NCBI GenBank assembly: GCA_041661765.1
Contig: JBAZTV010000001.1
Coordinates: 7,755-71,754, forward strand
Length of the DNA: 64,000 bases
Reading direction: 5' to 3'
From: Candidatus Shapirobacteria bacterium
Lineage (GTDB): Bacteria > Patescibacteriota > Microgenomatia > UBA12405
Positions 5,494 to 59,221 of this stretch are shown one piece after another; position 1 is the first letter of the stretch; every line of letters starts with the position of its first letter. The notes under the pieces were generated by a model that saw only the letters and a program-made list of their open reading frames with translations, had not been told where the DNA came from and did no database searches. A program made the translations under genes and the position numbers.

Positions 5494-6807
5494 ATGCCTC
5501 AACAATTTACCCAAGAACAAATTGAAAAACTTAAAAATCTCGGAATCGAAGTTAATCCCAAAGACACTATTACCAACGAAAATCAACTCGCCGACTTATC
5601 CACTCCCCAACCAACCGAAACACCAAATTTACCTCCACTACCTCAACCAACCGAAACAGAAAATAATAATTTCTCCCCTTCCTCAAGGGGAGATGCGGCA
5701 AATGCCGAGAGGGGTTTAGACAAAAAAAAGACCCCTCCAGTTTTCCCTCTCCTGTCCATTTCCGGTCTCACCCTTCTCTCTTTCGGCGGTCTCGTTTTTT
5801 TAAAAGGCAATGGTTCCCAATCCAACAATCCATCTAAAATCACTCCTTCACCCGTCCGTAGTCAACAAGACGTAGGAGGGCCCACACAAGTACCTAAGTC
5901 TATCCAACATTATCTTTTAACATCACAACAATATTTTTCCCAAGCCGTTTCTAAACAATCCACTGATAATTCATCCTCTGTCGAACTACTTAATAATTCA
6001 ATTATAGCCGCAACTCAGGCAATAAAAGAATTCCCAGACGACTATCGTGGCTACCAACAACGAGGTAATATTTACCAGGCTCTTACTAGTTCAAAACCCG
6101 ATCTTTTAGATCAATCTATATCTGATTTTGCCTCTGCTTTCAAATTAAATTCCAACTCTGCTGAAATCACCCGTTCCCTCGCTTCACTTTATGCCAAAAA
6201 AGGTGATGCCAATAAAACTATTCTCTATTTAAACCAAACCGTTGCTCTCGAACCAACCAAAGCCCAAAATTTTTATGACCTTGCCAAAATCCAGCAACAA
6301 GTCGGTCTTCTTTCTCAAGCCCTCGACACTTACAGTAAACTAACCACTCTAATCACCGATCCAACCCAAAAAATCCAAGTCGAATCCGAAAAAGCTGCCC
6401 TCGAAAAACTAGTTGCTCAAAATCCACGCTCTTCCGAAGCTTCAGCGCAGGAGAGCCAAATTTTACCACCCATCGCCGCTCCATCTTCTCTCGACTCTCC
6501 AACTATTCAAGCCATGGGCGAAGGAGGTCTCATTATTGCTGCTCCCGAAGAAGACAAATCAATTACTGTCACCAACCAAACTGAATCAAATTCTCTTTCC
6601 GGAACCTCAATTATTTCCTCTGGCCAAAAAGAAATTACTATTCCCAACAACAATATTTCTTCTACTTCCCAAGTATATGTCACTGTTACAAAAGGTGGCA
6701 AAAATCAAAATCTCCAAGTCATTTCAAAATCAGAAAAATCTTTCATTGTCGGTCTCGATTCCCCAATTTCCGAAGACATCGAATTCAAATGGTGGATCAT
6801 TAATTAA
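5494..6807 (+). CDS. Membrane-anchored protein with a TPR-like helical region and a C-terminal roughly 60 aa domain homologous to the C-terminus of the upstream giant protein (ends EDIEFKWWIIN)
   Basis: ORF of 437 aa with one predicted TM helix (VFPLLSISGLTLLSFGGLVFL). Its C-terminal SQVYVTVTKGGKNQNLQVI...FIVGLDSPISEDIEFKWWIIN aligns to SMVYLTPVGSTNNQVPYI...FTISLDNYLDKDIQINWWIIN of the 6..5345 protein. An in-frame repeat insert gives SPSSRGDAANAERG near the N-terminus. Confidence 0.55.
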   Translation: MPQQFTQEQIEKLKNLGIEVNPKDTITNENQLADLSTPQPTETPNLPPLPQPTETENNNFSPSSRGDAANAERGLDKKKTPPVFPLLSISGLTLLSFGGLVFLKGNGSQSNNPSKITPSPVRSQQDVGGPTQVPKSIQHYLLTSQQYFSQAVSKQSTDNSSSVELLNNSIIAATQAIKEFPDDYRGYQQRGNIYQALTSSKPDLLDQSISDFASAFKLNSNSAEITRSLASLYAKKGDANKTILYLNQTVALEPTKAQNFYDLAKIQQQVGLLSQALDTYSKLTTLITDPTQKIQVESEKAALEKLVAQNPRSSEASAQESQILPPIAAPSSLDSPTIQAMGEGGLIIAAPEEDKSITVTNQTESNSLSGTSIISSGQKEITIPNNNISSTSQVYVTVTKGGKNQNLQVISKSEKSFIVGLDSPISEDIEFKWWIIN

Positions 6808-6815
6808 ACCCACCC

Positions 6816-7127
6816 CTAACCCCTCCCTTGACAAGGAGGGGAAATTAAATTTGCTAATTTATTTTTTACAATATTGATTTGATTTAATATTTCATCATTA
6901 GTAAATCTAATAGTTTTAATTCCAATTTGATATAAAAATTTATCTCTAGTTTCATCATATCCTTTCCTTTTGTTATGTGAACTTCCATCAATTTCTATTG
7001 CTAAATTTAATTCAGAACAATAAAAATCCAAGATAAAACGGTTTATTGGTTTTTGTCTTAAAAACTTATATCCTGTTTTTCTCTTCATTAAAATTTCTCT
7101 CCATATTTTTTCTTCAGTCATAAACAA
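6816..7127 (-). CDS. DUF559-like (Vsr/endonuclease-fold) domain protein; the C-terminal end runs into a palindromic repeat
   Basis: The motif FILDFYCSELNLAIEIDGSSH...RD.FL...GI.TIRFTNDEI resembles the DUF559 endonuclease-like domain. The ORF tail PPCQGRG is a translation of the CCTTGTCAAGGGAGG repeat. Confidence 0.45.
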   Translation of the reverse strand: MFMTEEKIWREILMKRKTGYKFLRQKPINRFILDFYCSELNLAIEIDGSSHNKRKGYDETRDKFLYQIGIKTIRFTNDEILNQINIVKNKLANLISPPCQGRG

Positions 7128-7247
7128 TTTTTTTTCTCATATTTTTATTCCCCTCCTTGTCAAGGGAGGGGTTAGGGGTGGGTTAAAACAACAAATTGAT
7201 TTTAAATAATTAGTAATATTTTTCACACTTTAATAATAAAGTTTTAA

Positions 7248-7300
7248 GCCTCCCTGTCAAGGGAGGTGGATTCCGATGTAATCGGAAGACGGAGGGTTTT
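7248..7300. repeat. Family-1 structured repeat: hairpin A (GCCTCCC-TGTCAA-GGGAGG), hairpin B (TGGATTCCGATGTAATCGGAAGAC), then GGAGGGTTTT
   Basis: Direct reading. The same three-part organisation recurs more than 40 times in the window, with a conserved loop and tail but variable stems. Confidence 0.8.
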
Positions 7301-7429
7301 AAAAAAAGATTAATTTCTCTCCTTGTTAAGGGGAGATACCGGTTTATCCGGAGAGAAGATTTAAAATAAAAGGTGTTTCCAAACCAAAAACCTCCCTTTC
7401 TTCAAGAGAGGTTTAACTTCTTTATTATT

Positions 7430-7472
7430 TCTCCCCTATCAAGGGGAGATGCGGCGAATGCCGAGAGGGGTT
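7430..7472. repeat. Family-1 repeat: TCTCCCC-TATCAA-GGGGAGA + GATGCGGCGAATGCCGAGA + GGGGTT (a near-identical copy lies inside the CDS at about 5680..5730)
   Basis: Direct reading. Confidence 0.8.
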
Positions 7473-9579: not shown

Positions 9580-9696
9580 AATAGCTCTTTCCCCGCACTT
9601 TTATCGCTTTAAAAATCCACCCCTGCCCCTCCTTTGACAAAAGGAGGGAAAATTCCCCTTTAGTCAAAGGGGAAAGCGGCGAAGCCGAAGGGGATT

Positions 9697-10981: not shown

Positions 10982-12412
10982 TTACTTTTTCCCAATCTTA
11001 TCCAAAAACTCCTGATTATTTTTAGTCTTAGCCATTTGGCCCAAAATCATCTCAGTAGTTTCTTCCGCCTTGCCTAAAGCATCAAACATTCTTCTAATTG
11101 AAATAATTTTAGCCATTACAGTTGGTTCTAAAAGTAAATTTTCCATTCTAGTTCCCGATCTCAAAATATCAAAAGCTGGAAAAATTCTTCTTTCAGCCAA
11201 ATTTCTTTCCAATCTCAATTCCATATTTCCAGTTCCCTTAAATTCTTCAAAAATCAAATCATCCATTTTTGAACCAGTATCCACCAAAGCTGTTCCAATA
11301 ATCGTCAACGAACCACCACCTTCAATTTTACGAGCGGCTCCAAAAAATCTTTTTGAAGGATACAAAGCAGCAGGGTCAAAACCACCCGACAATGTTCTCC
11401 CAGAAGTTGGAATTGCTAAATTGTAAGCTCGAGCCAGTCTGGTAATTGAGTCAAAAACAATAAACACATCTTTACCCATTTCTACCAATCTTTTAGCTCT
11501 TTCCATGGCAATTTCTGCCGATCGAGTTTGTTCTTCTGGTTTTTGATCAAAAGAAGACGCAATCACTTCACCTTTAATAAATCTTTGCATATCAGTCACT
11601 TCTTCTGGTCTTTCACCCACCAACACCGCCATCAAATGCACTTCTGGATAATTAATCGCAATACCTGCCGCAATTTCTTTCAATAAAGTAGTTTTACCAG
11701 CTTTAGGGGGTGACACCACCATACCTCTTTGACCAAATCCAATTGGTGAAAATAAATCAATAATTCTTGTCGAAGCTATATCAGCAGCAGTTTCCAGCTT
11801 TACCTGTTTTTGTGGATAAATTGGCACTAAATCTTTAAAATCTGGCCTATTTTGAACTTGTGATAATTCCAAATCATTAACTTTATCAATTCTCGTCATT
11901 GCCCAATATTTTTCATTTTCTTTAGGAGCCTTAGCTTGACCCAAAATCATATCCCCCACTCTTAATCCATACCGTCTAATTTGCATTGATCCAATAAAAG
12001 CATCTCTAACTGTTGGAATAAATTTAGGACGAACAAACCCCTGCCCATCTTGCATAATTTCCAAAGCCCCTAAAATAGACTCCGTTTGAACTGGAGCTGG
12101 TGGGTTATATTGAGCCTGTGGTCTTGGAGGTTGAATTGGTGCTTTTTGACCTGGTTGTACGTAAATAGTTTTTGGTTGTTCAGTTTTTACAAAAACCACT
12201 GCATTGTTATCTTTTGGTTTTTCTTCAGTTTTAACAGCCTCCCTGCTTGCCCGCCCACTGGCTGGGTCAAGGGAGGTGTTTCCGATTTCATCGGAAAGGG
12301 AGGGTTTAACCTCAGAGGGATTTTGAACAACAGGTTCTGCAACAGCAGAAACGGGTGGGTTTTTAACAACTGGATCCGCAACAACGACATCGTCGGTTTT
12401 TTTCTTTATCAT
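10982..12412 (-). CDS. rho: Transcription termination factor Rho with an extended N-terminal region that carries an in-frame nested palindromic-repeat insert
   Basis: Walker A and the Rho core (GQRGMVVSPPKAGKTTLLKEIA...VGERPEEVTDMQR...DSITRLARAYN) align residue by residue with bacterial Rho. The N-terminal segment SLSDEIGNTSLDPASGRASREAV is encoded by the composite repeat at about 12225..12330. Confidence 0.85.
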   Translation of the reverse strand: MIKKKTDDVVVADPVVKNPPVSAVAEPVVQNPSEVKPSLSDEIGNTSLDPASGRASREAVKTEEKPKDNNAVVFVKTEQPKTIYVQPGQKAPIQPPRPQAQYNPPAPVQTESILGALEIMQDGQGFVRPKFIPTVRDAFIGSMQIRRYGLRVGDMILGQAKAPKENEKYWAMTRIDKVNDLELSQVQNRPDFKDLVPIYPQKQVKLETAADIASTRIIDLFSPIGFGQRGMVVSPPKAGKTTLLKEIAAGIAINYPEVHLMAVLVGERPEEVTDMQRFIKGEVIASSFDQKPEEQTRSAEIAMERAKRLVEMGKDVFIVFDSITRLARAYNLAIPTSGRTLSGGFDPAALYPSKRFFGAARKIEGGGSLTIIGTALVDTGSKMDDLIFEEFKGTGNMELRLERNLAERRIFPAFDILRSGTRMENLLLEPTVMAKIISIRRMFDALGKAEETTEMILGQMAKTKNNQEFLDKIGKK

Positions 12413-13383
12413 TTTTTTTGGAAATTTTTAATCAATAATAATTACTTACGTAGGAACAGACCCTCGTGTCTGTTCAAATTAACAAAAAAACAAGGCAAAA
12501 ACGGGAAATTTCTTTATATTCAAACTAATTCTATCTATTAATAGCCTCTCTGTCAAGGGGTTCCCCCTCCTTTCGTCAAAGGAGGGGTTAGGGGTGGATT
12601 TAAAAATAGAGTTGAAAGTAGAAGACCTGCCCCCTCTTCTACTCTCAACTCTATTCTCAAAGCTAAATTAATTTAATTTAACCAACAGATCGGTTAATCT
12701 TAATTTGACTTTTCTACCAAATTTACCTATCTTAGATATTGAAGAAACAATGTTATTCGTGTTCCACCTGCTTTGAGAACATCGGTAGCTTTGTTTCTTT
12801 TTCGTTTCTTTAGCTAAAAATTCAAGTCATAGACGATGAATTTTTGTCTAAAGACACGATACCGGCGAAGCCGGTATATAACCGATTAAGTGAAATTCGG
12901 GGTATCAGCCCTTTTCTCTTTTCGGGTCTATTTTTAAAGTTACATCAAAATCAGCTTTCCTCTAAGTTTACCCATCTCTTTAAACTGTTTCTCCGCCCAA
13001 GTATCTTTTTTCTTGCCGGATTTTTTTGCGTTTTTAGAAGAAAACATTTTTTTAATTAATTGAAGCATTAAATTAGTATAACTCCCTTTTTGCCCTTGTC
13101 TATATCCTATATTAATTTGCCTCCCCAAAATCAACAATCCTATAATTTTTTATTTATAAAAAATAGGTTTATTTTTACCACTTTTAAACCATTTTCAGTC
13201 ATTGTGGATAACCTGAGGATAATTAAAATAAGGACTTCTCCCTTGCTTGTCCGTCCGTAGCTTTAGCGAAGGAGGATTAAGGAGAACTGCCCGCAGGGCT
13301 AAGTGGCTTTAAAACCAAAAAAAAAGGGAAAACACAATATCTAAAAAATTAGACATTATATTTCCCCTTAAGACAGACATACT

Positions 13384-16240: not shown

Positions 16241-17416
16241 TTACTTATAAATCACATTCTTCTTACTAGTCTCCACAATTCCCAAAGAGATTTTTCTCTT
16301 TTGGACATCAATACTTTCAATATAAACTTGAACTGTCTCACCTTCTTTTACTGTCACCCCACCAGTCAATTTAGAAATATGGATTAACCCTTCAACTCCA
16401 GTTTCCAATTTCACCAAAGCTCCAAAATTAGCAATTCGAACCACTTCACCTTCAACTTCTTTATCTTTTGGATATTTTTCTTCAATTATTGACCATGGAT
16501 CATCAGACAATCTCTTAATTGAAAATTGTAATCTACTATCATCCTTATTAATCAATTTAATTTTAACTTTATCTTTAGCTCTATACATTTGAGAAAGGTC
16601 ACTCACCTTTTCCCAAGAAATTTCCGAAATATGAACCAATCCTTCCAAATTTAAAGGTGCACCCTTATTATCAGTATTAACTCGAACAAAAATACCAAAT
16701 GGCTCAACTCTAACAATATCAGCATCAAAAACATCACCAACTGCTAAATTCTCAATTGCCCCAACCTCTTCACCCACTTTTTCCGGTTCAGACACTAATC
16801 TCTCCGAAAAAACCAATCTGTTTTTAGCTTGATCAACTTCCAAAACTTTAGTTTTGATTTTCTTACCCATCATTTTATCTGGATCACCATCATATTTACT
16901 TCCAATTTGAGAACCAGGAATAAATCCAAAAAAACCAAATGGTGCAACCACAACCGTTCCACCTCTATTTAATTCCTTAGCAAAGACAGTCACCTCACCA
17001 CCACTCTTTTCCTTTTCTTTAAAGTAGTTCCAACCATAGCCACTAGCTGCTCCACGAATTGAAGCCAAAATTTGGCCCTTATCATTTTCTGGTGATTTAA
17101 TTTGAACTTCAATTTCATCATTTACCTTCAAATCAGCCACATAATCTTTTACAAATTCAAACTCCTTTCCAGCTACCATTGCGTCGGTTTTACCACCAAC
17201 ATCAATATAAATTGCTTTATTCTTAATTGCTGTAATTCTCCCTTTAACTTCCTGTCCTTTTTTAAGTCCAACTAATTGAACTCCTTCCATCTTTAAAAGA
17301 TCCGCCATTGTTAAAGCAGCATCACTTTTTTTTACTTTTTTGTCCTTATTTTTCATATTTTTATCTTTTTTTTGTTTAGTCGACCGTAGCCTTGGCGAAG
17401 GTGACCCATAAAACAA
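16241..17416 (-). CDS. rpsA: Ribosomal protein S1-like protein with four S1 domains; the real start is probably internal (about 17356, MKNKDKK), since the first 20 codons are read from a repeat
   Basis: Four OB/S1-type repeats (GQEVKGRITAIKNKAIYIDVGG, GEVTVFAKELNRGGTVV, GDVFDADIVRVEPFGIFVRV, GEVVRIANFGALVKLETGVEGLIHIS). The N-terminal GSPSPRLRSTKQ is encoded by the GTCGACCGTAGCCTTGGCGAAGGTGACC hairpin. Confidence 0.7.
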   Translation of the reverse strand: MFYGSPSPRLRSTKQKKDKNMKNKDKKVKKSDAALTMADLLKMEGVQLVGLKKGQEVKGRITAIKNKAIYIDVGGKTDAMVAGKEFEFVKDYVADLKVNDEIEVQIKSPENDKGQILASIRGAASGYGWNYFKEKEKSGGEVTVFAKELNRGGTVVVAPFGFFGFIPGSQIGSKYDGDPDKMMGKKIKTKVLEVDQAKNRLVFSERLVSEPEKVGEEVGAIENLAVGDVFDADIVRVEPFGIFVRVNTDNKGAPLNLEGLVHISEISWEKVSDLSQMYRAKDKVKIKLINKDDSRLQFSIKRLSDDPWSIIEEKYPKDKEVEGEVVRIANFGALVKLETGVEGLIHISKLTGGVTVKEGETVQVYIESIDVQKRKISLGIVETSKKNVIYK

Positions 17417-17439
17417 AAAATCCCGATTTATTCGGGATT
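17415..17439 (-). terminator. Intrinsic terminator for the 23S-5S transcript (minus strand: CAATCCCGAATAAATCGGGATTTTTT)
   Basis: Hairpin with a 7-bp stem followed by a T6 run when read on the minus strand, about 135 nt 3' of the 5S gene. Confidence 0.55.
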
Positions 17440-17574
17440 GTAGGGGTACTCTTCCGTAGTTTTAGCGCAGGAGAGCCCAAATAAATTAATAATAAAACAC
17501 TTAAATTTATTGAATCGAATTCTTTTTAAGTCCCTCTTGTCAAAGAGGGATTTAGGGAGATTGTATTTAGTTTC

Positions 17575-20795: not shown

Positions 20796-20946
20796 CAATA
20801 TTTGGCAACTCAATTTAGTTGCCAAGAATAAACGAAATTGAAATTAAATTACTTTCGATTCAATAAATTGTTAATGTACAAATACTTAGTTAAAGGAGAT
20901 AAATTTCTTTGTCTCCTTATTTCTAACCATTTATTTAGTGGATTTA

Positions 20947-20972
20947 TCCACCGTAGCTTTAGCGTAGGTGGA
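20947..20972. repeat. Family-2 hairpin (TCCACC-GTAGCTTTAGCGTAG-GTGGA) abutting or overlapping the 3' end of tRNA-Ala
   Basis: Shares the CGTAGCTTTAGCG(A/T)AGG core with copies at 13258, 17385, 17449, 49065 and 49655, and with in-CDS copies at 4560 and 6427. Confidence 0.6.
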
Positions 20973-21042
20973 CCTGGGGAGAGTCGAACTCCCGACCTCC
21001 TCATTGCAAATGAGGCGCTATAACCAACTAAGCCACAGGCCC
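20969..21042 (-). tRNA. tRNA-Ala (anticodon TGC); CC of the CCA end is encoded
   Basis: Cloverleaf: acceptor GGGCCTG/CAGGTCC with the Ala-identity G3:U70 pair, D-arm GCTTAGTTGGTTATAGC, anticodon loop CATTTGCAATG, T-arm GGGAGTTCGACTCTCCC. Confidence 0.85.
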
Positions 21043-40437: not shown

Positions 40438-40489
40438 TAACTTCTCCCTTTTTCAAGGGGAGATGTCGAGCAAAGCGAGACAGAGGGGT

Positions 40490-42439: not shown

Positions 42440-42550
42440 CCCATGATTATACCATCAAAATCGGTTCAAAAAATTAAAAAACAAAGACTTCCGCCCTTGC
42501 TTGCCCGCCTCTGGTGGGTTAAGGGAGGATGTCCGCAGGACAGGAGGGTT

Positions 42551-42962: not shown

Positions 42963-45959
42963 TTATTTACCAAGCTCAACCCCCATCCTAATATCCTCAT
43001 TCAGTTTTTGATTAAATAACAATTTTCCTCCCATCATACTAGCCTGTGGTTCCACCTGTAATGGTTGCCAATCTTTTGGAAAAGATACTAATGTCACCAA
43101 TCCAGTATCTCCAAACCCAGACTGTTTTTGAACATAACTCACATAAGAAAATTTGTCTTTACCTGTTAAGGTATTTGCACTAGAATATTTTATTTCCACC
43201 GTTTCTTTACTCAACACTGGTACTGTCACCAAAAAACCCACTTCTTTTTTTCCATTAATTTCTTTAATTCTAATTTCATCACCCGTATAAATTTTTCTTG
43301 AATTACTCTTATCATCAATCACACTAATTTGCGATAAACTAATATCCACAGGTAAATAAACCCTTAAATAATTTTTATATTCACCACCAGGAAAATCATT
43401 ACTTTTAGCCAAATTTTCATAATTAACTTTCAATGTCCTCTCCACTAAACTTTCATTAATATCTACCACCTGTTCCATACTTCTAGATAAAAAATAATTC
43501 GTTTTATTCACCCCAAAATTAGAATCCACTACAAATAAATAATCTGAAAAACAATTTTCTTTTGTACATTTCCCTTGATACATTGTTCCATCCCATCCTA
43601 AATCAGCTGCCAATTTAGCTGTTTCATTATTATTAAAAGCCAGTTGAATTTCATTTTTTTCCAATAAATCAACCAAAGAAAAAACTAATTCTAATTGCTG
43701 TTTCGCTTTTAACCCTTTTATTTCTTCAAACATTTGACTTCCCAAAGTCCCTAAGAAACTCGCCTTCTGAGTCGATCCCGGGAAAAATTTACTTTCTGAA
43801 TAATATTCTGCCTGTTCATATAAATTATCCTTAGTAATTTTTTCTTTAAAATCAGTCACATTAATTTCTCCAATCACTCCCACAATTGCTTTCGCCACTG
43901 CCAAATTAATTCCAATCACTCCATCCACCTTTTTATTAATTTCCTGACTTAAAAACCATTGGATATCTGCCGAAGCCTTTACAAAATCAGGATTCCAATT
44001 AGCATCTCTCATAAACCAGTTTGCTTCTCCTAAATAATTTTTTATTTCTATTGGTGGTTCCACATGTCCCTTTAATTGACCATCAGCTTCATAAACATCT
44101 TTTACTTCAAAATTTAAAAGTTTTCCATTTTGAAAACTCAAAATCGCATAACTTCCAATAAATCCTCCTGTTGCCCTCAATTCTGCTTCATTTTGAAGCA
44201 ATACTAAATATTCTCTTTTTCTTCCATCCAAACCCAACATTTCTGGTAAAATTTTTATTCCTTTCGACGCCAAATTCAATTTTTCTTTTATTTCCTTTAA
44301 ATCTTGGGCTTCTTTTTGTAAAGATATCCTCCATTTTGCTGGCATCCAACTATAATCACCGTTCAATCTTGCTAAAACTAAGCCCAACTCATTATCAAAA
44401 TTAACTAAATATTCTTCTTCTTTATTTAATTCATCAGAAAAATTTATTTCTCTTTCTTTAAAAATCGCCTGACTTATTAAATCCGCACTTTGACTGATCA
44501 CAATCGAATCTTTTTCCAGTTTCAAAACATCCTCCCCCACTTTAAGTAATGTCTGATAATTTCTAATTATTTCAAATTTATTTAATCCAGTATCGTCAAT
44601 TTGCTGATCAATTTCTTTAATCCTGGTTAAATTTTTATCCACCAAAGTTTCTACCTGTTTATATTTTTTCGCTTCAATTAAAACTACATTTTCTTTAATA
44701 TTATTAAAAGCCAAAACTGTCGATATTGTCCATTTTATTGGCACTATTAATAATAAAAAAATAATTAAAAATAAAAACGGCAGTGTCCATTTATTTTTTT
44801 TAAAAAATTTATTTTTAAATTTAAATTTCTCCCTTTTTTTAAGGGGAGATGTCTCCGCAACAGCGGAGACAGATAGGTTTTGAATTAACGGGGTGGGTTT
44901 TATTATTTCATCCTCAAAACTATCATCAAATTCCTCCACCACATTTTCTTTAAAAGCCTCCGGCTTAATCTTCTCCACCTCCAACCCCATCTTTTTTTGC
45001 TTATAAAAACTTTCTATCTCCTCTAATTCCCCTGCCCTGTCAAGGGAAGGGTTAGGGATGGGTTTCAAAATTTCCTCTTCCACCACCACCTCCATTTTTC
45101 TTTTATTGACCTCTCTTTTAATCGGCTCCGGCTCTTTTTTTATAGCCTCCCTGTCAAGGGAGGTGTCCCGATTTATCGGGACGGAGGGTTTTTTAGGTTT
45201 TCTACTTTCTTCATCAGCCCTCGAAAAAAAATATTGCAAAGTTTCTATTATTCCATCTTTAAAATCATTTTTTGGCTCCCATCGTAATTTTTTCACTGAC
45301 TCTTTCAATCTTTCTTCATCTATTTTTTCAATTTCAATCTCCTTTTGCATCACCTTATACCGTGTCATTTTTGCCTCATCTATCAGCACTTTTGCCACTT
45401 CTTCACTATTTGTCTCCTTACCCAAAATTAAAAAGAATTCTTTTTCCGTTCCCGACAAAAAACTCGCCCTTAAAATTGCTTCAACCAAATCTTCAATTGC
45501 CAAGATTCTAAACCTACTTTTTAAATTTGGTAACACCAAATTTTTATTAACCACTGCCAATTTTATTGCTTCCGCTAAAAAATTATCTTCGTCCATTCCT
45601 GGACCATAAACCCCTTCCGCTTCCACCATTCTCCAATTCAAATTTAAATTCTCTAAATCATTTTTTAAAAAATCAGCCTTCTTTTTATCATTTACGCAAA
45701 CCAATGTAATTTTTTCACCCTTAAACTGATCCATTTTCCACAGGTTTTTATCTCCCAAAAAATCAAAAACATAATTAAATTTACCACTAACTTCCGACAA
45801 ATCCATCAATAACTCAAAGTTCTTTATATCGCTTAATCCAACCACATATTCCCCCACCCCAACCACATTTATATCTTTATTCGACAATTCCTCCGCCAAT
45901 TTTTTAGCCGCAAATTGATCTATTCCAATAATTAAAGCGTAAGGCAATGCCGAATTCAT
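42963..45959 (-). CDS. 998-aa ORF: N-terminal Rossmann/epimerase-like soluble domain, a low-complexity linker that reads in-frame through three palindromic repeats, one TM helix, then a large extracytoplasmic domain (DUF4012-like, motif RATGGFIGSYA). Possibly two genes fused by the ORF finder.
   Basis: Continuous ORF. Repeats at 44828..44880, 45031..45070 and 45146..45194 are translated as SPLKKREKFKF..., NPSLDRAGELEE and TPLIQNLSVS... The TM segment is WTLPFLFLIIFLLLIVPI. Confidence 0.45.
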   Translation of the reverse strand: MNSALPYALIIGIDQFAAKKLAEELSNKDINVVGVGEYVVGLSDIKNFELLMDLSEVSGKFNYVFDFLGDKNLWKMDQFKGEKITLVCVNDKKKADFLKNDLENLNLNWRMVEAEGVYGPGMDEDNFLAEAIKLAVVNKNLVLPNLKSRFRILAIEDLVEAILRASFLSGTEKEFFLILGKETNSEEVAKVLIDEAKMTRYKVMQKEIEIEKIDEERLKESVKKLRWEPKNDFKDGIIETLQYFFSRADEESRKPKKPSVPINRDTSLDREAIKKEPEPIKREVNKRKMEVVVEEEILKPIPNPSLDRAGELEEIESFYKQKKMGLEVEKIKPEAFKENVVEEFDDSFEDEIIKPTPLIQNLSVSAVAETSPLKKREKFKFKNKFFKKNKWTLPFLFLIIFLLLIVPIKWTISTVLAFNNIKENVVLIEAKKYKQVETLVDKNLTRIKEIDQQIDDTGLNKFEIIRNYQTLLKVGEDVLKLEKDSIVISQSADLISQAIFKEREINFSDELNKEEEYLVNFDNELGLVLARLNGDYSWMPAKWRISLQKEAQDLKEIKEKLNLASKGIKILPEMLGLDGRKREYLVLLQNEAELRATGGFIGSYAILSFQNGKLLNFEVKDVYEADGQLKGHVEPPIEIKNYLGEANWFMRDANWNPDFVKASADIQWFLSQEINKKVDGVIGINLAVAKAIVGVIGEINVTDFKEKITKDNLYEQAEYYSESKFFPGSTQKASFLGTLGSQMFEEIKGLKAKQQLELVFSLVDLLEKNEIQLAFNNNETAKLAADLGWDGTMYQGKCTKENCFSDYLFVVDSNFGVNKTNYFLSRSMEQVVDINESLVERTLKVNYENLAKSNDFPGGEYKNYLRVYLPVDISLSQISVIDDKSNSRKIYTGDEIRIKEINGKKEVGFLVTVPVLSKETVEIKYSSANTLTGKDKFSYVSYVQKQSGFGDTGLVTLVSFPKDWQPLQVEPQASMMGGKLLFNQKLNEDIRMGVELGK
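45146..45194. repeat. Family-1 repeat (GCCTCCCTGTCAAGGGAGG + TGTCCCGATTTATCGGGAC + GGAGGGTTTTTT) lying in-frame inside the 42963..45959 ORF
   Basis: Direct reading. The hairpin B loop GATTTATCG is shared with copies at 49690, 51280 and 56715. Confidence 0.8.
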
Positions 45960-49023: not shown

Positions 49024-49050
49024 AACCCAATCTTAACATATTAAATACTT

Positions 49051-49127
49051 CTCCCTTGCTTGTCCGTCCGCAGCTTTAGCAAAGGAGGATCAAGGGAGGT
49101 GGTCCGAAATTTCGGACCGGAGGGTTT
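49051..49127. repeat. Composite or nested repeat: a family-1 hairpin A split by an inserted CTTGTCCGTCCGCAGCTTTAGCAAAGGAGGAT unit (family 2), followed by hairpin B (TGGTCCGAAATTTCGGACC) and GGAGGGTTT
   Basis: CTCCCTTG[CTTGTCCGTCCGCAGCTTTAGCAAAGGAGGAT]CAAGGGAGG... Equivalent composites occur at 13240..13300, 12225..12330 (inside rho) and 49638..49717. Confidence 0.7.
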
Positions 49128-49601: not shown

Positions 49602-49637
49602 AGTCGCTATTTTAACACGAAAATTTTAAAAAAATTG

Positions 49638-49717
49638 CTCTCTTGCTTGTCCGTTCGCAGCTTTAGCGTAGGAGGATCAAGGGAAGCTGTTCCGATTTAT
49701 CGGGACTGAGGGGTTTT
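49638..49717. repeat. Composite family-1/family-2 repeat (CTCTTGCTTGTCCGTTCGCAGCTTTAGCGTAGGAGGATCAAGGGAAG + CTGTTCCGATTTATCGGGAC + TGAGGGGTTTT)
   Basis: Direct reading; same nested organisation as 49051..49127. Confidence 0.7.
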
Positions 49718-51488: not shown

Positions 51489-52832
51489 ATGGATATTGAA
51501 AGAATTTGGAAAAACACTCAAGAAGAGTTAAAAATAACTCTTGCCCCAGCTATCTTTCAAACTTTTGTTTTAAAAACCCAACTCATTAACCTTGAGAATA
51601 ATCTTGCCATTATTGGTTGTCCCAATACTTACTCTGTTGATTTCAACAAAAAACGCCACTATGACGTCATCAAAAACGCCCTAGACAATCAAACCAAAAA
51701 CAACAACACCCTTAATTTTATTGTCCAAGAAAATTTAAAAACCGATTTTGATACCACCAACAATACTCCACTTTTTTCCTATTCTCCCAACAGGGTTACT
51801 AATTCTTCTCTTCACCCAAAATACACTTTTGAAAACTTAGTTGTTGGTAATAGTAATAATTTTGCCTTTGCTGCCGCTCAAAGTATTGTTAAAAATCCCG
51901 GTCTTTCTTATAATCCTTTCTTTATTTGGGGTGGGGTAGGAGTTGGAAAAACTCATCTTATGCAGGCTATCGGACATGAACTTCTCAAAAAGAATCCTGA
52001 TTTAAAAATAAAATATTTTTCCGCTGAATCATTCGGCAACGAATTAATTGGTGCCCTTAAAACCAAAAACATGAATCATTTTAAAGAAAAATATCGTAAT
52101 TTAGACTGCATTCTCGTTGACGATATTCAATTTATCGCTGGTAAAGAATATACCCAACAGGAATTTTTTCACACTTTCAATGCCCTCCATATGAACGGTA
52201 AACAGGTTATTTTAACTTCCGATCGTAAACCTAGTGAAATTGACCATCTTGAAGATCGTCTTGTCTCTCGGTTTATGGGTGGCTTAACCGTCGATATTCA
52301 ACTTCCCGACTACGAAATGCGCATCGCTATTATCAGCCAAAAAATTGAAGAAAAGGGGATTCAAATTACTCCCGAGGCTGTTGAATTTTTAGCCAATAAT
52401 ATTGAATCAAATATTCGCGAAATTGAAGGTAAGCTTCAACAAATTTCCGTTCAATCTCTATCTCAACAAACAGGGGAGATAGATATTCTTTTTGTCCAAA
52501 AATTTTTCAATCCTTCCTCAACTTCTACTAATTTTAGTTTACCCACCACCAAATTAAATCCTCGTCATATTATTTCTGTCTGTGCTAAACATTTTAATAT
52601 TAAAACCAGTGACCTTTGTGGAAAAAGTCGCAAGAAAGAATTGGTCACCGCTCGTCACATTACTGCTTATTTACTCTTAACCCAAATAAACCTACCTTTA
52701 GAAGAAGTTGGACATCTTCTTGGTGGTCGTGATCATACCAGTATTATGCATGCTCGAGATAAAATAACCAACGACTTTTCCACTAATCCACAAACTCGTC
52801 AACTTATCAACCAAATCAAAAACACTTTTTAA
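51489..52832 (+). CDS. dnaA: Chromosomal replication initiator DnaA
   Basis: AAA+ Walker A GGVGVGKTHLMQAIG, Walker B LDCILVDDIQFIAGK, sensor motifs, and a C-terminal DNA-binding helix-turn-helix (TARHITAYLLL...GGRDHTSIMHA). Confidence 0.9.
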   Translation: MDIERIWKNTQEELKITLAPAIFQTFVLKTQLINLENNLAIIGCPNTYSVDFNKKRHYDVIKNALDNQTKNNNTLNFIVQENLKTDFDTTNNTPLFSYSPNRVTNSSLHPKYTFENLVVGNSNNFAFAAAQSIVKNPGLSYNPFFIWGGVGVGKTHLMQAIGHELLKKNPDLKIKYFSAESFGNELIGALKTKNMNHFKEKYRNLDCILVDDIQFIAGKEYTQQEFFHTFNALHMNGKQVILTSDRKPSEIDHLEDRLVSRFMGGLTVDIQLPDYEMRIAIISQKIEEKGIQITPEAVEFLANNIESNIREIEGKLQQISVQSLSQQTGEIDILFVQKFFNPSSTSTNFSLPTTKLNPRHIISVCAKHFNIKTSDLCGKSRKKELVTARHITAYLLLTQINLPLEEVGHLLGGRDHTSIMHARDKITNDFSTNPQTRQLINQIKNTF

Positions 52833-53143
52833 CCCTTAAAAAGTTTTCCACTTTACCGAACCACTTATCCACAATTTTATCCACATTTCATTTTTCATTT
52901 TTCCCCCGAAGTTTACCCAAACTCAAAAACAAACTATAAGCTATAGCTATTAATTTTTACCTTATTTTAAACCTTTTCTTACTTTATAACACTCCAATTA
53001 CTTTAATTAAATCATAACTTTCCGTTATTTTTAAAACTACCCCACTTATTAACACTCCCTACTAAACATTACTACTGTTTTGGATATTAATTATCTTTAT
53101 TAAAAACCTTTAAACCTAAACTATTTTTTGATAATATAAGTCA
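52833..53143. other. Candidate oriC: the dnaA-dnaN intergenic region with clustered DnaA boxes and an AT-rich unwinding region
   Basis: TTTTCCACT (52853..52861), TTATCCACA (52874..52882) and TTATCCACA (52886..52894), followed by about 200 bp of over 80% AT. Two further TTTTCCACA-type boxes lie upstream of dnaA (51335..51343 reverse, 51375..51383). Confidence 0.65.
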
Positions 53144-54262
53144 ATGAAACTTTCCCTTTTACAAGAAAATTTAAACACTGCATTAACTAATGTTTCTCGA
53201 TTCGTCTCTTCAAAAAATCAATTACCTATATTAAATAATATTTTATTGTCAACCGACAACGGTAGACTGAAACTTTCAGCTACTAATTTAGAATTAAGTA
53301 TTAATTATTGGATTGGAGCCAAAATTGAAGAAGAGGGGACAATAACTATTCCCTCAAAGGAGATAACTGAATTTGTTTCTTATTTAACCCCTGGAAAAAT
53401 TGATCTTTCTCTAAAAGGAAACAATCTTTTAAATTTATCTTCATCAAAAACCGAATCAACTTTCACCACTAATCCTTCCACTGATTATCCTGATTTCCCC
53501 ACCCTCAACCCAGATACTTGTTTTGAATTAGATTTAAACATTTTAACTCAAGCCGTTTCCCAAATTGCTTTTTCCGCTGCCACCGACGACAGTCGTCCAG
53601 TTTTAACCGCCATCCTTTGTCAATTTACTTCTGACAGTTTAAATTTAGTTGCTACCGATGGTTTTCGTTTATCTTTTAAAAAGATTAAACTAATTAATCC
53701 TATTGATTTAAAAACCGACCAAATCACCTTTTTAATTCCTGCCAAAAGCCTTTTAGAGGTCACTAAACTCGCTAAAACCAACACTAAAGTTAAAATAGGT
53801 TTAACATCTGACGAACATCAAGTGGTCTTCGTTCTAGATGATGTAGAGCTGGTTTCTCGACTTATTGAAGGGGAGTATCCCGCCTATCAAAGAATAGTTC
53901 CAGAATCTTTTTCCACTAAAGTCTTTTTAAATAAAGATGAATTAACCCAAGCTGTTAAAATCGCCTCTGTTTTTGCTAAAGAATCAGCCAATATTGTTCG
54001 TTTTAATATTAAAACCAATTTTATTGAACTTACTGCCAACGCTCCTCAAATCGGTCAAAACAAAGCCACTGTCGATGCTAAAATAGAAGGCGAAACCCTA
54101 GAAATCGCCTTTAATTATAAATTTTTAATAGATTTTCTTAGCGTTTGCAAAAGCCAAGAAATTATTATCGAGTTAAATGAATCCCTAACCCCAGCCTTTT
54201 TTCACGATCAATCAGATAAAGATTTCTCCCACATCATCATGCCAGTCAGATTGCAAGACTAA
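53144..54262 (+). CDS. dnaN: DNA polymerase III beta sliding clamp
   Basis: 372 aa with three-domain clamp periodicity. The N-terminal ...LPILNNILLSTDNGRLKLSATNLELSI is typical DnaN, and the position after dnaA is canonical. Confidence 0.85.
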   Translation: MKLSLLQENLNTALTNVSRFVSSKNQLPILNNILLSTDNGRLKLSATNLELSINYWIGAKIEEEGTITIPSKEITEFVSYLTPGKIDLSLKGNNLLNLSSSKTESTFTTNPSTDYPDFPTLNPDTCFELDLNILTQAVSQIAFSAATDDSRPVLTAILCQFTSDSLNLVATDGFRLSFKKIKLINPIDLKTDQITFLIPAKSLLEVTKLAKTNTKVKIGLTSDEHQVVFVLDDVELVSRLIEGEYPAYQRIVPESFSTKVFLNKDELTQAVKIASVFAKESANIVRFNIKTNFIELTANAPQIGQNKATVDAKIEGETLEIAFNYKFLIDFLSVCKSQEIIIELNESLTPAFFHDQSDKDFSHIIMPVRLQD

Positions 54263-56635: not shown

Positions 56636-59221
56636 TTAAACTATCCCGTCTCCAAACAATTTATCATAATCCATCTTATTGTCTTCTTTTTTAAATTCTC
56701 CCTTGTCAAGGGGAGATGTCGATTTATCGACAGAGGGGTTTGAATCAAATATTGGTTGTGGTTTTCTTGCCAATTGTGGTGGTTGAGGTATTCTTTGTTC
56801 TTCAGTTTTAACAAAAATCGGTTTTTTATTTTCCGAGACCACTACAACTTCTGGCCTTTTAAATAACACCGACTCAGTTTTTAACTCCGGTTTTATTTCA
56901 GTCATCGCTACTGTGGGATTAAAGGAGGTGTTCCGCAGTGGCGGAACGGAGGGTTTTACTTCAATTTCCACTGGTTTTATTTCGGGAACACTAACTTTAG
57001 GAGTAAAATTAATGGTTCTTATTTCATCAGTTTTATTAGCAGTCAATGCTGACTCAACTGGTTTTACCTCCATCGGTTTTATTTCTAAAACATTAAAATT
57101 AGTTGTCGTTTCAGGCATTTTAATCTCCATTGATTTTATTTGCCCTGCCCTGTCAAGGGAAGGGTTAGTGAAGGGTTTAGGTACTTCTGGTGGGACTGAG
57201 GGGTTTTGAACCGGAATTTTATTTTCAATCTCTACAGTTTTTATTTCTGGAATATTAAATTTTGGCGCCACTGGAGTCGTTTTTACCTCGACTGGTTTTA
57301 AGTCTCCCTTGTCAAAGGGAGATTTAGAGGGATTGAAAACAGCTGATGGGTTTTGAAACGGTTTCGTTTCTATCGGTTTAATTAGTGGTTTCATTCCATT
57401 ATTTGGCTTTTGATCACTCAATAAACTTTGCTTTTTTAAAATATCTTCTGGATTAGAAGTAATTAAATTATGTTCATCAGCCGAAGCAATTATTTGAATT
57501 GCCACATGGTTTTGCCCAGCAAAGAAAATTCCTTCACCTTTACTTGCCGATAATAATAATTGTTTTTCTCCCTGACTCAAATAAAATACTTCTCCAATTT
57601 GGTCAATAGCCGCACTATGTTGTTTTAATAAAATTTGAATTGAACTATTAGTAACTATTTCTTTACCATAAGCAGTTTTCAAAAAATCATCAACATCTTG
57701 GGTAATTGTTGTCACTCCCAAATAGTATTTTCTGCCTCTTTTAACAATTCCTCTTAAAAATTCAGCTGAATCATCATGTTGCATCAAATACCAGGCTTCA
57801 TCCACCACCAATATTCTTTTTTTCAATGTCTTTTTAACAACCGTCCAAATATAATCCAAAATAATTTGCATTGCCACAGGTCTCAAAGCATCTTCCAAAT
57901 TTCTAATTCCAAAAACTACAAATTTATTAGTTAAATTAACCGTTGTCTTTTGGTTAAAAATTCCCGAAAAGGATCCTTTAATATATTTTTCCAATCTGGC
58001 TGCCAAACCTTTAGCTTTTTCATCTTCCATTCCAATCAAAGATTTATACAAATCCTCAATTAATGGTGGTTCTTTGTCTTGAGTTACTGGATCAGGAGTA
58101 ATCCCTTTCATCTTATAAGCATCCATCATTGCTCTATCCATAATTGATTCCTCAATCGGATCCATTTCACCCAACATCACTTTTAATAGTTTATGTAAAG
58201 ATAAGATCTTAGTATTTAAACCATTTTCACCCTGTTCTTCGGCTAAAGTTAAATCAAACGGATTAATTTTTGAACCTTCACCATAACCAAATGCAATATA
58301 TTGGCCGCCAGAATTATCACACAATTCTTTGTATTCATTTTCCGGGTCAATCACAATAACATCCGTTCCCATCATTAATGATCTAAGAACCTCCAATTTA
58401 ATTAAATAAGATTTACCAGCTCCAGCCATAGCAAAAACAACTGAATTATAATTTGGCATTGAAAATCTATCAAAAATTACCAAAGACCCATTATGCATAT
58501 TAATCCCATACATAATTCCCTGATCATCTGATAAATCTGACGACACAAAAGGGAAAGTAGTTGCCAAAGAGGTAGTATCCATATTTCGACTAACTGCCAA
58601 TCTATCTTGGCAAATAGGTAAAGTCGATACAAATCCATCTTCCATTTGTAACGTCGCTTTTTTACTTATAATCAACAACGATCCCAAGGCTGCCTCTAAA
58701 TTTTTATTTACTCTATCCAGTTCAACTATAGAATCAGCCGTTATCGTTACATAAAGTCCAAATTGAAAAAATCTTTCTTCGCCTTTAACCAAATTAGCCT
58801 GCAAATTCAAAGCATCCTCCAATTTCGCTTGTGTTGCTGGATTAATCAATCTACCCCTTTGAATATCAGTACTTAACTCGGCCTCCATTTCTGTGATTTT
58901 TCGGCGAAGATCATCTAAAACTTCTTTTCCATCGGTCGGATAAATAAACATTGAAATATTTAAAGAAGAATCAAAGTTAATCAATGACGACAACCAATTA
59001 ATTCCCACAAATCTCGGATATGCCGCAACAAATAAAGTTCGATAATATTTATTATCAATTCTAATATGGTTAAAATCCACTTCCAAAGCTGATGGAGCAA
59101 TTATATCTTTAGTTGTCACCAACCCTTGAGTGAAATCTCTTTTATTTGGATCAACTACCTCTGTTGGTGTTGCTGGATTATTTACTACTGTTGTTTTTTT
59201 ATTAATATTAAAAAGTTTCAT
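56636..59221 (-). CDS. virB4: VirB4/TrbE/CagE-family T4SS ATPase with a C-terminal extension of about 270 aa that reads through four palindromic repeats
   Basis: Walker A VFAMAGAGKSYLIKLEVL; Walker B ILVVDEAWYLM; conserved RKYYLGVTTITQDVDDF. The tail contains SKSPFDKGDLKP, NPSLDRAGQIK and TSPLDKGEFKK, encoded by repeats at 56697..57331. Confidence 0.8.
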   Translation of the reverse strand: MKLFNINKKTTVVNNPATPTEVVDPNKRDFTQGLVTTKDIIAPSALEVDFNHIRIDNKYYRTLFVAAYPRFVGINWLSSLINFDSSLNISMFIYPTDGKEVLDDLRRKITEMEAELSTDIQRGRLINPATQAKLEDALNLQANLVKGEERFFQFGLYVTITADSIVELDRVNKNLEAALGSLLIISKKATLQMEDGFVSTLPICQDRLAVSRNMDTTSLATTFPFVSSDLSDDQGIMYGINMHNGSLVIFDRFSMPNYNSVVFAMAGAGKSYLIKLEVLRSLMMGTDVIVIDPENEYKELCDNSGGQYIAFGYGEGSKINPFDLTLAEEQGENGLNTKILSLHKLLKVMLGEMDPIEESIMDRAMMDAYKMKGITPDPVTQDKEPPLIEDLYKSLIGMEDEKAKGLAARLEKYIKGSFSGIFNQKTTVNLTNKFVVFGIRNLEDALRPVAMQIILDYIWTVVKKTLKKRILVVDEAWYLMQHDDSAEFLRGIVKRGRKYYLGVTTITQDVDDFLKTAYGKEIVTNSSIQILLKQHSAAIDQIGEVFYLSQGEKQLLLSASKGEGIFFAGQNHVAIQIIASADEHNLITSNPEDILKKQSLLSDQKPNNGMKPLIKPIETKPFQNPSAVFNPSKSPFDKGDLKPVEVKTTPVAPKFNIPEIKTVEIENKIPVQNPSVPPEVPKPFTNPSLDRAGQIKSMEIKMPETTTNFNVLEIKPMEVKPVESALTANKTDEIRTINFTPKVSVPEIKPVEIEVKPSVPPLRNTSFNPTVAMTEIKPELKTESVLFKRPEVVVVSENKKPIFVKTEEQRIPQPPQLARKPQPIFDSNPSVDKSTSPLDKGEFKKEDNKMDYDKLFGDGIV

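Follow-up and report, generated by a model that had tools for sequence, protein, structure and literature searches.

The class II intrastrand triplex repeats TMECO/BoxC of E. coli (Hoyne et al. 2000; Holder et al. 2015, PMC4666352) are the closest described counterparts of the first of the two repeat families analysed here. Triplex formation by TMECO was observed in vitro, its copy number varies strongly between close strains, and the published search for it was defined by stems of 6–15 nt and loops of 1–6 nt (Holder et al. 2015, PMC4666352). For the second family, the nearest systems are REP elements and insertion sequences of the IS200/IS605 kind, whose transposases are described as acting on single strands and as recognising end hairpins such as those considered below. 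The published ends of IS608 of Helicobacter pylori read GAAT-CCCCTAGCTTTAGCTATGGGG on the right and AAAG-CCCCTAGCTTTTAGCTATGGGG on the left. REP elements are described as a precedent for solitary hairpins that are served in trans by a domesticated relative of the IS200/IS605 transposase, ISPpu9 is described as inserting in them, and according to Di Nocera 2013 they are found inside genes and inside other palindromes.

Nested repeats in the window

The window, i.e. the whole 64-kb stretch of Shapirobacteria DNA that was analysed, has a low GC content (~34%) and a GC skew that is negative throughout, with the majority of genes on the minus strand. It carries genes for 23S and 5S rRNA, tRNA-Ala, tRNA-Ile, rho and radA, together with dnaA-dnaN, rpmH-rnpA-yidC-jag and a type IV secretion-like cluster. 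The original prediction had described nested repeats at 49051, 49638, 13240 and 12225, in which a unit of a second family splits the loop of a first-family hairpin. Positions and sequences were found as described, except that the rho copy lacks the CGTAGCTTTAGCGAAGG core and holds a shorter relative instead; a fifth composite at 42490, which had been overlooked, likewise lacks this core. In all five, a family-1 copy has an additional hairpin in loop 1, at a position that is always the same, between (T)TG and T(C/T)AA. The insert is a 31-nt family-2 unit in three of them (49059–49089, 49646–49676 and 13246–13276) and a shorter, 19–21-nt relative with a tetraloop in the other two (12246–12266 in rho and 42500–42518). 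This short form reads CTTG-CCCGCC-(CACT or TCTG)-GG(C)TGGG, or more generally CTTG-CCCGCC-tetraloop-GGYGGG, and spans 21 nt in rho and 19 nt at 42500; it shares with the family-2 unit the CTTG and the kind of pyrimidine/purine stem, with a tetraloop replacing the 14-nt apex. Excision of the insert leaves a canonical simple loop in five of five cases (CCCTTG/TCAAGGG, CCCTG/TCAAGGG or CCCTTG/TTAAGG, where the slash, here and below, marks the junction).

Composite 1 (49050–49127, plus strand) was delineated from its sequence layout into a Y arm TCTCCCTTG (49050–49058), the family-2 unit CTTG-TCCGTCC-GCAGCTTTAGCAAA-GGAGGA (31 nt, 49059–49089), a purine arm R1 TCAAGGGAGG (49090–49099), a hairpin B (49101–49118) and a mirror arm R2 GGAGGGTTT (49119–49127), all on the plus strand. 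The unit was matched by the covariance model at 34.6 bits (E 1.4e-6), and its excision leaves the canonical loop CTCCCTTG/TCAAGGGAG. In the DNA fold, the inserted hairpin is coaxial on hairpin A (-17.1 kcal/mol, z -3.4). The remaining composites also lie on the plus strand. Composite 2 (49637–49716) is a degenerate triplex-type repeat over the yidC stop codon, with its unit at 49646–49676 (family D19; 23.9 bits), and composite 3 (13236–13310) is a triplex-type repeat with its unit at 13246–13276 (41.3 bits with the covariance model). Composite 4 (12237–12307) lies in frame in the N-terminal region of rho and holds the 21-nt insert CTTGCCCGCCCACTGGCTGGG (12246–12266), which is missing from the orthologue in locus L123. 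Composite 5 (42490–42549), a triplex-type repeat that was recognised in the sequence and also folded as DNA, holds the 19-nt insert CTTGCCCGCCTCTGGTGGG at 42500–42518, with a weak model match at 42498–42520. The three family-2 composites share about 54 nt at 81–91% identity (family D19), and in each of them a stem formed by CTCCCTTG and CAAGGGAG encloses CTTG-TCCGTCC-GYAGCTTTAGCRNA-GGAGGA. A decayed composite (56890–56956, plus strand) in a VirB4/TraG-like gene has kept R1, hairpin B and R2, with Y arm and unit eroded, and was recognised as the orthologue of an intact composite in L127 (3433–3516), L130 and L132.

With up to three mismatches, the family-2 core occurs eight times in the window, at 4564, 6434, 13255, 17384, 17454, 20951, 49068 and 49655, always on the plus strand, compared with 0.12 copies expected. 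Free hairpins with this core, originally placed at 17385, 17449 and 20947, were borne out at 17384, 17454 and 20951. The last of these belongs to a free unit at 20941–20974 (plus strand), which gave the best covariance-model match in the window (43.1 bits) and overlaps the 3′ end of the tRNA-Ala gene, its 3′ arm GGTGGA being the complement of the tRNA-Ala 3′ end TCCACC. The other two (plus strand, within 17374–17477) are diverged units at 17374–17406 and 17444–17477, with 11.8 and 15.8 bits, which flank a terminator-like hairpin 3′ of the 5S rRNA gene. The core had also been reported in frame in the first two proteins of the window; matches are present at 4564 and 6434, in paralogous peptide segments and with weak covariance-model scores, and are counted as one event that is old or doubtful.

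Layout of the family-1 repeat

In family 1, a pyrimidine arm Y is followed by loop 1 and by a purine arm R1 whose sequence is the reverse complement of that of Y; loop 2 then leads to a second purine arm, R2. The sequence of R2 mirrors that of R1, G standing opposite G-C pairs and either A or T opposite A-T pairs; examples of Y, R1 and R2 are TCTCCCC, GGGGAGA and AGAGGGG, CCCCTCC, GGAGGGG and GGGGTGG, and TCCCTCTT, AAGAGGGA and AGGGAGAT. It thereby shows the succession of blocks (Y, R and R, the third mirroring the second) by which such repeats were defined in Holder et al. 2015. Loop 1 is conserved (tGTCAa) and is usually GTCA or TTGTCAAG. Stems measure 6–9 nt, and in simple copies loop 1 usually has 4–9 nt and loop 2 has 2–3 nt. 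Many copies, however, have a loop 2 of 11–27 nt and the composites a loop 1 of 24–35 nt, compared with the 1–6-nt loops of the published search. The contents of loop 2, such as GTCCCGATTTATCGGGAC, GCGGCGAAGCCG or GTCCGCAGGAC, are often unrelated mini-hairpins.

Exact 6-mers in the Y-R1-R2 layout were found at 23 perfect plus-strand loci, against 0.3 in Markov shuffles. A more tolerant scan yielded about 36 non-overlapping copies in 64 kb, 30 on the plus and 6 on the minus strand, with 17 distinct Y arms and a density of roughly one per 1.8 kb. Canonical purine-motif triads account for 265 of 288 positions (172 C-G.G, 53 T-A.A and 40 T-A.T), and a register test gave these 265 at offset 0, compared with 137–150 at ±1 and 176 in the best non-mirror register. 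Folding programs cover hairpins and not base triples, and the triplex assignment rests on the layout and on the published work on E. coli TMECO. Judged by this layout, family 1 is an intrastrand purine-motif triplex-type repeat, a known kind in an extreme form, in which the density, the strand bias, the conserved loop 1 and the loops with GC-rich mini-hairpins are new. R2 could enter the groove of the Y:R1 duplex in an orientation antiparallel to R1, forming G.G-C, A.A-T and T.A-T triads.

Two other roles were considered for parts of the repeat and rejected. R2 cannot pair with Y because it is the mirror of R1 and not its repeat, which excludes an arm of an alternative hairpin or terminator. 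A promoter in loop 1, suggested by TTGACA (the -35 consensus) on the gene strand, was discarded because the spacing to -10-like hexamers is inconsistent. Of note, a separate GTAG-tagged repeat is also present in the window (families D11 and D15).

Filled and empty sites in relatives

The rho orthologue in L123, with an identity of 83% in the search and of 85% when aligned, carries the same repeat in the same place, as ...ACCTCCCTTGA/CAGGGAGGCTGTT. The window rho has 21 extra bases at this junction, where the L123 loop TTGA/CAGGG is intact, and the boundary is ambiguous by one base. At the protein level, TSLD[PASGRAS]REAV in the window corresponds to TSLDREAV in P0004. In the Wzy gene, the near-identical sister strain L127 has the repeat without an insert, GCCTCCCT-gtta-AGGGAGGT, and L130 and L133 have it with one, GCCTCCCT-g(CCTGCCCGCCCACTGGCTGGG)tta-AGGGAGGT, where the bracketed 21-mer is identical to that of the window rho and sits in a different repeat copy. 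Two paralogous repeats in the VirB4-like gene of L127 differ only by a 33-nt loop insert, the family-2 variant CTTTGTCCGTCCGTAACTTTCAGTGAAGGAGGA, which is in frame and has one covarying apex pair; this composite is conserved in L130 and L132. The original prediction had proposed that empty sites be sought in related strains, and such sites were found for the rho 21-mer, the Wzy 21-mer and the L127 paralogues. Among the relatives compared, no orthologue was found that has the repeat of one of the three family-2 composites but not its unit. At the 13236 site, the repeat of L125 is simple and lacks both the unit and hairpin B, and L124 is devoid of a repeat. Together with the RlmN alleles described below, the comparisons largely support the predicted origin of the composites by insertion of a discrete unit at a clean loop boundary.

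At 49 kb, relatives lack whole composites. Composite 1 is wholly missing from the relatives L127, L130, L131 and L133, and composite 2 from L134 (95% YidC identity) and four 90% relatives, which have a 24-nt spacer there. Where YidC is 90–95% identical, the yidC-jag and jag-wzy spacings are 24 and 23 nt, and the window has about 83 and 88 extra bases at these places, which correspond to the two composites in full; the stop codon of yidC is now provided by one of the two. In syntenic 20-kb stretches, relatives have 3–9 family-1 repeats, fewer than the window, and the rho N-terminus in this clade is a patchwork of translated repeats. Family-1 repeats thus turn over quickly. Inserts within genes measure 21, 30 or 33 nt, and those of the intergenic window composites 31 nt (three) and 19 nt (42500), lengths that are consistent with a reading-frame filter.

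Movement of the 49-kb composites in one piece is conceivable because the relatives lack the whole composite. Composites may accordingly have moved as single pieces, or the insert may have spread between repeats by short-patch gene conversion. In its full form, this alternative holds that the insert reaches new repeats by homology and not by targeting, a single rare loop insertion being handed on through gene conversion or template switching via the 8–10-nt arms, or through copying of whole composites as the repeat proliferates. It would account for the identical arms, GCCTCCCTG...T(C/T)AAGGGAGGT, of the two repeats that hold the same 21-mer (window rho and L130 Wzy), for the absence of both 49-kb composites, which lie 587 bp apart, as whole units from close relatives, and for the 13236 Y arm TTCTCCCTTG, which fits the 49051 copy better than its own R1 TTAAGGAGAA. 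Yet R1, hairpin B and R2 differ among the three family-2 composites and, as detailed below, the unit occurs in other phyla in unrelated hairpin loops and in its own loop without flanking homology, as well as at coding sites outside hairpins. Spread by homology or by copying of whole composites, the main rival reading for the composites, is regarded as unlikely.

Distribution of the family-2 unit

Units of the form CTTG followed by YCCG-CCGTAGCTTTAGCGAAGG-CGGR are not confined to this genome; besides many bacterial phyla, they occur in phage contigs and in giant-virus-like ones. A scan for CCGYAGCTTTAGCRNAGG with one genome per species returned at least 120 loci, and the matches listed include Acidobacteriota, Verrucomicrobiota, Planctomycetota, Bacteroidota, Proteobacteria, Bdellovibrionota, Nitrospirota, Elusimicrobiota and many Patescibacteria. 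Chance matches for the core alone were estimated at a few hundred; nearly all listed matches, however, share the flanks (G)CTTG-YCCN/core/NGGR. The four outer stem pairs covary, with 110 double-change cells compared with 40.7 in shuffles (0 of 500 shuffles as high), and 93% of outer stem cells are paired, against 27–56% with the partner columns slid. Across phyla and viruses, the 18-nt apex hardly changes, in contrast to the stem. The covariance model found about 22 further diverged copies in 708 kb of listed loci, and the data suggest a copy number of tens to about 100 per genome.

Viral contigs have paired arms in 50 of 70 family-2 matches. In giant-virus-like contigs, recognised by EsV-1-7, DUF5764, RING and SNF2 genes, the arms are AT-rich (TTTCYGATTATATT/core/AATAT), and copies lie between genes in the two that were checked (L318 and L292). 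On plasmids the unit is rare, with one Rhizobium megaplasmid locus only.

About half of the copies lie within stop-free open reading frames of at least 150 codons, and only in frames in which the unit has no stop codon. Host genes include those for ValRS, HsdM, RlmN, DnaG and an E2 subunit, in which the units encode peptides such as PSFAKATAGK, SSAFAKATADK or PSVALAKDG. In the RlmN of Sedimentisphaerales, the segment is missing in 18 of the 21 closest orthologues, two orthologues have 10 additional residues, and one has a further 20 residues inside the segment. The empty allele reads GAC AGC/GGC, and the filled allele has exactly TCCGCCTTCGCTAAAGCTACGGCGGACAAG at the slash, a 30-nt insert that consists of the 26-nt hairpin and CAAG, without duplication. 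In the third allele, 60 more bases lie in the unit's own apical loop (GCT/AAAGC). Self-nested and tandem copies were also found in L034, L095, L115, L197, L251 and L252.

An all-against-all comparison of the open reading frames of the 120 loci listed revealed no protein family common to the unit neighbourhoods beyond housekeeping families. Rfam gave no match for family 1 or family 2 in the window, in 18 loci or, at a permissive threshold, in two short stretches. Full-text literature searches with the unit DNA and the translated peptides retrieved no relevant paper, and those on palindromic elements that are nested or in frame led only to background on REPs and MITEs.

Landing sites of the family-2 unit

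A metagenome scan with the Shapirobacteria-type arm located units in the loops of terminator-like hairpins, AAAAAGCCGTTAG...CTAACGGTTTTCT, at several loci, in perfect 16-bp inverted repeats (L201, and twice in L247) and in another repeat-like composite (L183). A complementarity of 7 bp or more between the flanks was seen for 3.1% of 194 distinct family-2 copies, compared with 0.36% in shuffled pairings. This enrichment is real but concerns a minority of copies, and more than 90% of those elsewhere lie outside any obvious hairpin; units also occupy coding sites without a hairpin. The suggestion that the loop sequence TTGTCAAGG is itself the specific target found no support in that form, as units also lie in terminator-like hairpins, in 16-bp inverted repeats and in their own apical loop. 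Because units occur in unrelated loops as well and over 90% fall outside hairpins, the landing preference looks structural, for single-stranded loops, and partial.

At about 17 of the 120 loci listed, a tRNA or tmRNA gene lies within 200 nt of the unit, and in five cases, including the window tRNA-Ala, the tRNA end itself is one arm of the unit stem. These abutting copies prompted the idea of an outer stem templated by the target, which was rejected as a general rule because both arms were inserted in rho, Wzy and RlmN.

The enrichment near tRNA and tmRNA genes, the near-invariance of the 18-nt apex across phyla and viruses along with a covarying stem, and the intergenic position of the copies in the giant-virus-like contigs checked would suit a second alternative, in which the units are selected functional modules rather than selfish DNA, for instance hairpins for protein binding or RNA processing, such as 3′-end formation, or for a nucleoid protein. 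Such a role appears quite improbable in view of the half of the copies that lie inside unrelated coding genes, in any frame free of stop codons, the variable presence among close orthologues, the self-nesting and tandem arrays, and the want of a common gene context and of an Rfam match. The scenario named from the outset as contrary to insertion, namely that the composites represent ordinary divergence within a single repeat whose loop varies without any true boundary, draws on the varying lengths of loops 1 and 2 and on the unrelated mini-hairpins frequent in loop 2, but its probability is next to negligible, as it is contradicted by a junction identical in five copies, by orthologues and sister strains that restore the canonical loop exactly, and by an inserted sequence that exists independently across phyla.

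Proposed mechanism

Our preferred reading, which we consider somewhat probable as a whole, comprises two repeat layers, the triplex-type family 1 and CTTG mini-hairpins that are inserted in its loop 1 and mobilised as single-stranded DNA by a Y1 enzyme. The second layer consists of mini-hairpins starting with CTTG, among which the family-2 unit is composed of CTTG, a 4–7-bp Y/R stem and the near-invariant apex GYAGCTTTAGCRNA. Such units have entered loop 1 of some first-layer repeats, always between (T)TG and T(C/T)AA, where they lengthen hairpin A by coaxial stacking and do not disturb the three arms. In the proposed mechanism, they would travel as single-stranded DNA, on which a Y1 (HUH) transposase, either of the IS200/IS605 or of the REP-associated kind, would act in trans. 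Extruded hairpins and triplexes have a single-stranded loop, which would offer the units an accessible and harmless landing site.

Single-strand mobilisation by Y1 is our best guess for family 2 and is favoured because its hairpin resembles the IS608 end hairpin. Of 21 positions, 16 agree between the consensus CTTG-..GCCGTAGCTTTAGCGAAGGCG.. and the right-end hairpin of IS608, and the two have the 10-mer TAGCTTTAGC in common, a likeness that was noticed after the fact. The conserved tetranucleotide of family 2 lies at the position of the guide sequence in IS608. Several observations speak against this route: no Y1 transposase gene was found in the 64-kb window, 2.3 Mb of retrieved loci contained only one (L181), whose end hairpins are unrelated to family 2, and the units have no fixed target tetranucleotide. 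To our knowledge, transposition has never been shown for a single-hairpin element of 30 nt. Two other enzymatic routes were considered and rejected, namely rolling-circle cleavage after CTTG of the IS91 or phiX174 type and CTTG as the core site of an integrase, neither of which predicts the CTTG-CTTG tandem at the repeat loop.

Beyond this genome, a wider reading is put forward tentatively, as a possibility: family 2 might be a hitherto undescribed family of single-hairpin mobile elements of about 30 nt, present across bacterial phyla, phage contigs and giant-virus-like contigs and derived as minimal descendants from IS200/IS605 ends. These would insert without a footprint into single-stranded DNA, i.e. 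hairpin loops, their own loop, the ends of tRNA genes and permissive sites in housekeeping proteins, and would have colonised the loops of triplex-type repeats in Shapirobacteria.

Implications

Pre- and post-insertion sites are both available, with boundaries exact to about one base, so that insertion can be read directly. A hairpin of only 19–33 bases can behave as a discrete, transferable unit, and the apical loop of a triplex-type repeat receives such units repeatedly. If the repeats fold in vivo, a non-B DNA structure would be directly tied to the spread of mobile DNA; if the proposal is true, non-B DNA structures would serve here, in a natural system, as landing pads for mobile DNA. The unit lengthens enzymes such as RlmN, ValRS and DnaG by about 10 amino acids and would explain odd low-complexity peptides in predicted proteins (SFAKATADK, VALAKAG and SFSEGG). 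It is also a candidate substrate, and a very small one, for work on single-strand DNA transposition. For annotation, repeats extend or interrupt open reading frames in Patescibacteria, as exemplified by the yidC stop codon within a repeat and the rho N-terminus partly built from repeats.

Comparison with known systems

Family 1 shares with TMECO/BoxC the succession of Y block, loop, R block, loop and mirror R block (class II purine motif), G/C-rich arms of 6–9 nt, a frequent TTA loop 2, a tolerance for T opposite A-T pairs, and a dispersed, mostly intergenic distribution with strong copy-number variation between close relatives. It differs in abundance, with about 36 copies per 64 kb compared with 23 in the whole E. 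coli K-12 genome, and in its strong strand bias (30:6), whereas TMECO has none. A conserved loop 1 (tGTCAa), loops with hairpins of 11–33 nt, copies in frame in genes (rho, Wzy and VirB4-like) and a host among the Patescibacteria further set it apart.

Rickettsia palindromic elements are about 100–150 bp long and restricted to their lineage, and are reportedly inserted in protein genes. Family 2 resembles these and the fungal mitochondrial GC clusters and double-hairpin elements in being a GC-rich palindrome in an AT-rich genome, in lying in frame in functional protein genes and in having nested copies; it departs from the Rickettsia elements in size, sequence and host range. We know of no Rickettsia palindromic element or mitochondrial GC cluster in a triplex-type repeat, nor of one with an apex conserved across phyla. 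IS1397 and ISKpn1 target REP loops, which illustrates that a mobile element can target a repeated extragenic hairpin. Unlike these and ISPpu9, which are full insertion sequences with their own transposase, the guest described here is a hairpin of 19–33 nt without coding capacity. This length is below the usual size of MITEs, and neither empty nor filled sites have a target-site duplication as MITEs would.

The remaining comparison is with REP elements and IS200/IS605 ends. As in the latter, a conserved tetranucleotide stands directly 5′ of the foot of the family-2 hairpin, which is short and imperfect; insertion is precise and without target duplication, and the copies are strand-biased. Its tetranucleotide is CTTG, less often TTTA or CCTG, in contrast to the GTAG or CGTC of REPs and the AAAG or GAAT of IS608. 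No conserved target tetranucleotide was found flanking the units, unlike the fixed target of IS200/IS605 elements, and a single 26-nt hairpin with CTTG stands in place of their two ends. Whereas REP families are species-specific, the apex of family 2 is conserved across phyla. Family 2 appears to belong with REP elements and IS200/IS605 ends, as a relative not described before and spread over an unusually wide range of hosts.

Family-2 units within genes, at tRNA genes and in giant-virus-like contigs

The housekeeping gene RlmN was found in three allelic states, namely empty, +30 nt and +90 nt, by comparing a Sedimentisphaerales metagenome contig (L254) with further RlmN loci (L063, L255 and L256). 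The +30-nt allele corresponds to one family-2 unit, a mini-hairpin with a near-invariant 18-nt apex, and in the +90-nt allele the apical loop of this first unit hosts another 60 nt. Within the window, a weak match to the covariance model of the unit (E 0.17) was obtained at 5846–5882, in the second surface-protein gene, where the arms are family-2-like (CCGTCCGTAG...CGTAGGAGGG) but the apex differs (TCAACAAGA).

Family-2 units also adjoin tRNA genes, both in the window (20951–20968) and at loci L007, L009, L038 and L121. The acceptor end of the tRNA, either its CCA end or its 5' end, serves as one stem arm, to which the opposite arm of the unit is complementary. This arrangement may reflect microhomology at insertion, or it may have arisen through compensatory change after insertion.

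An identical 18-nt apex was found in AT-rich contigs with giant-virus hallmark domains, represented by giant-virus MAG contigs from IMG/VR (L274, L292, L298, L308 and L318). These copies have AT-rich, lineage-specific arms and share a conserved 5' flank, TTTCYGATT. They are intergenic in L318 and L292, the two giant-virus loci checked.

Architecture of the family-1 repeats and affected proteins

Throughout the window, family-1 repeats follow a Y/R/mirror-R layout, which, as read from the sequence, matches the geometry expected for an intrastrand purine-motif triplex. Approximately 36 copies occur in the 64 kb, 30 of them on the + strand, and three-way covariation was observed across 17 arm variants. 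Example copies are found at 45030–45190 and 57303–57333, and four + strand copies follow in a row at 7130–7472. Between this series and a − strand repeat (6809–6841) lies a DUF559 gene, with a Vsr-like endonuclease fold (6816–7127, − strand); a DUF559 gene is also present at the syntenic end of the related contig L125.

Loop 2 is often occupied by GC-rich mini-hairpins, as at 45163–45180, 9672–9683, 42531–42541 and 40461–40478. One type is CCGATTTATCGG; others include GNA-type triloops (e.g. GCGAAGC and CCGCAGG) and, in some cases, a tandem G.A motif (contained, for example, in GTCGAGCAAAGCGAGAC). Such motifs are typical of highly stable DNA hairpins. Since copies with equal arms have TTT or TTA in place of the mini-hairpin, loop 2 may take inserts too.

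The repeats alter proteins. The yidC frame enters a family-1 repeat and terminates at a stop codon within its hairpin B (49697–49715), and in-frame repeats are carried by the rho (12237–12307), Wzy, DUF4012 and VirB4-like genes. The loci showing these effects include two in the relative L127 (11913–11950 and 15043–15211 of that contig). In the long upstream leader of rho, a long hairpin (GAGTTGAGAGTAGAAGAGGGGGCAGGTCTTCTACTTTCAACTC) is conserved, as are further blocks (12620–12700, − strand; 420–480 in the relative L123). Relatives have these in common, whereas the surrounding repeats differ.

Origin region and a third repeat family

Cumulative GC skew falls steadily across dnaA and dnaN (51489–54262), and repeat orientation is unchanged from one side of this region to the other, so the replication origin may not adjoin dnaA.

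A third repeat family (D11 + D15), GTAGGGGCAGACC-NTTGT-GTCTGCCC, occurs at 12450, 15690, 22112, 26393, 46026, 46211 and 50708, always on the + strand. It is a palindrome with a GTAG tag, of the classical REP type, a possible sign that the source genome encodes a REP-associated Y1 transposase at another place.
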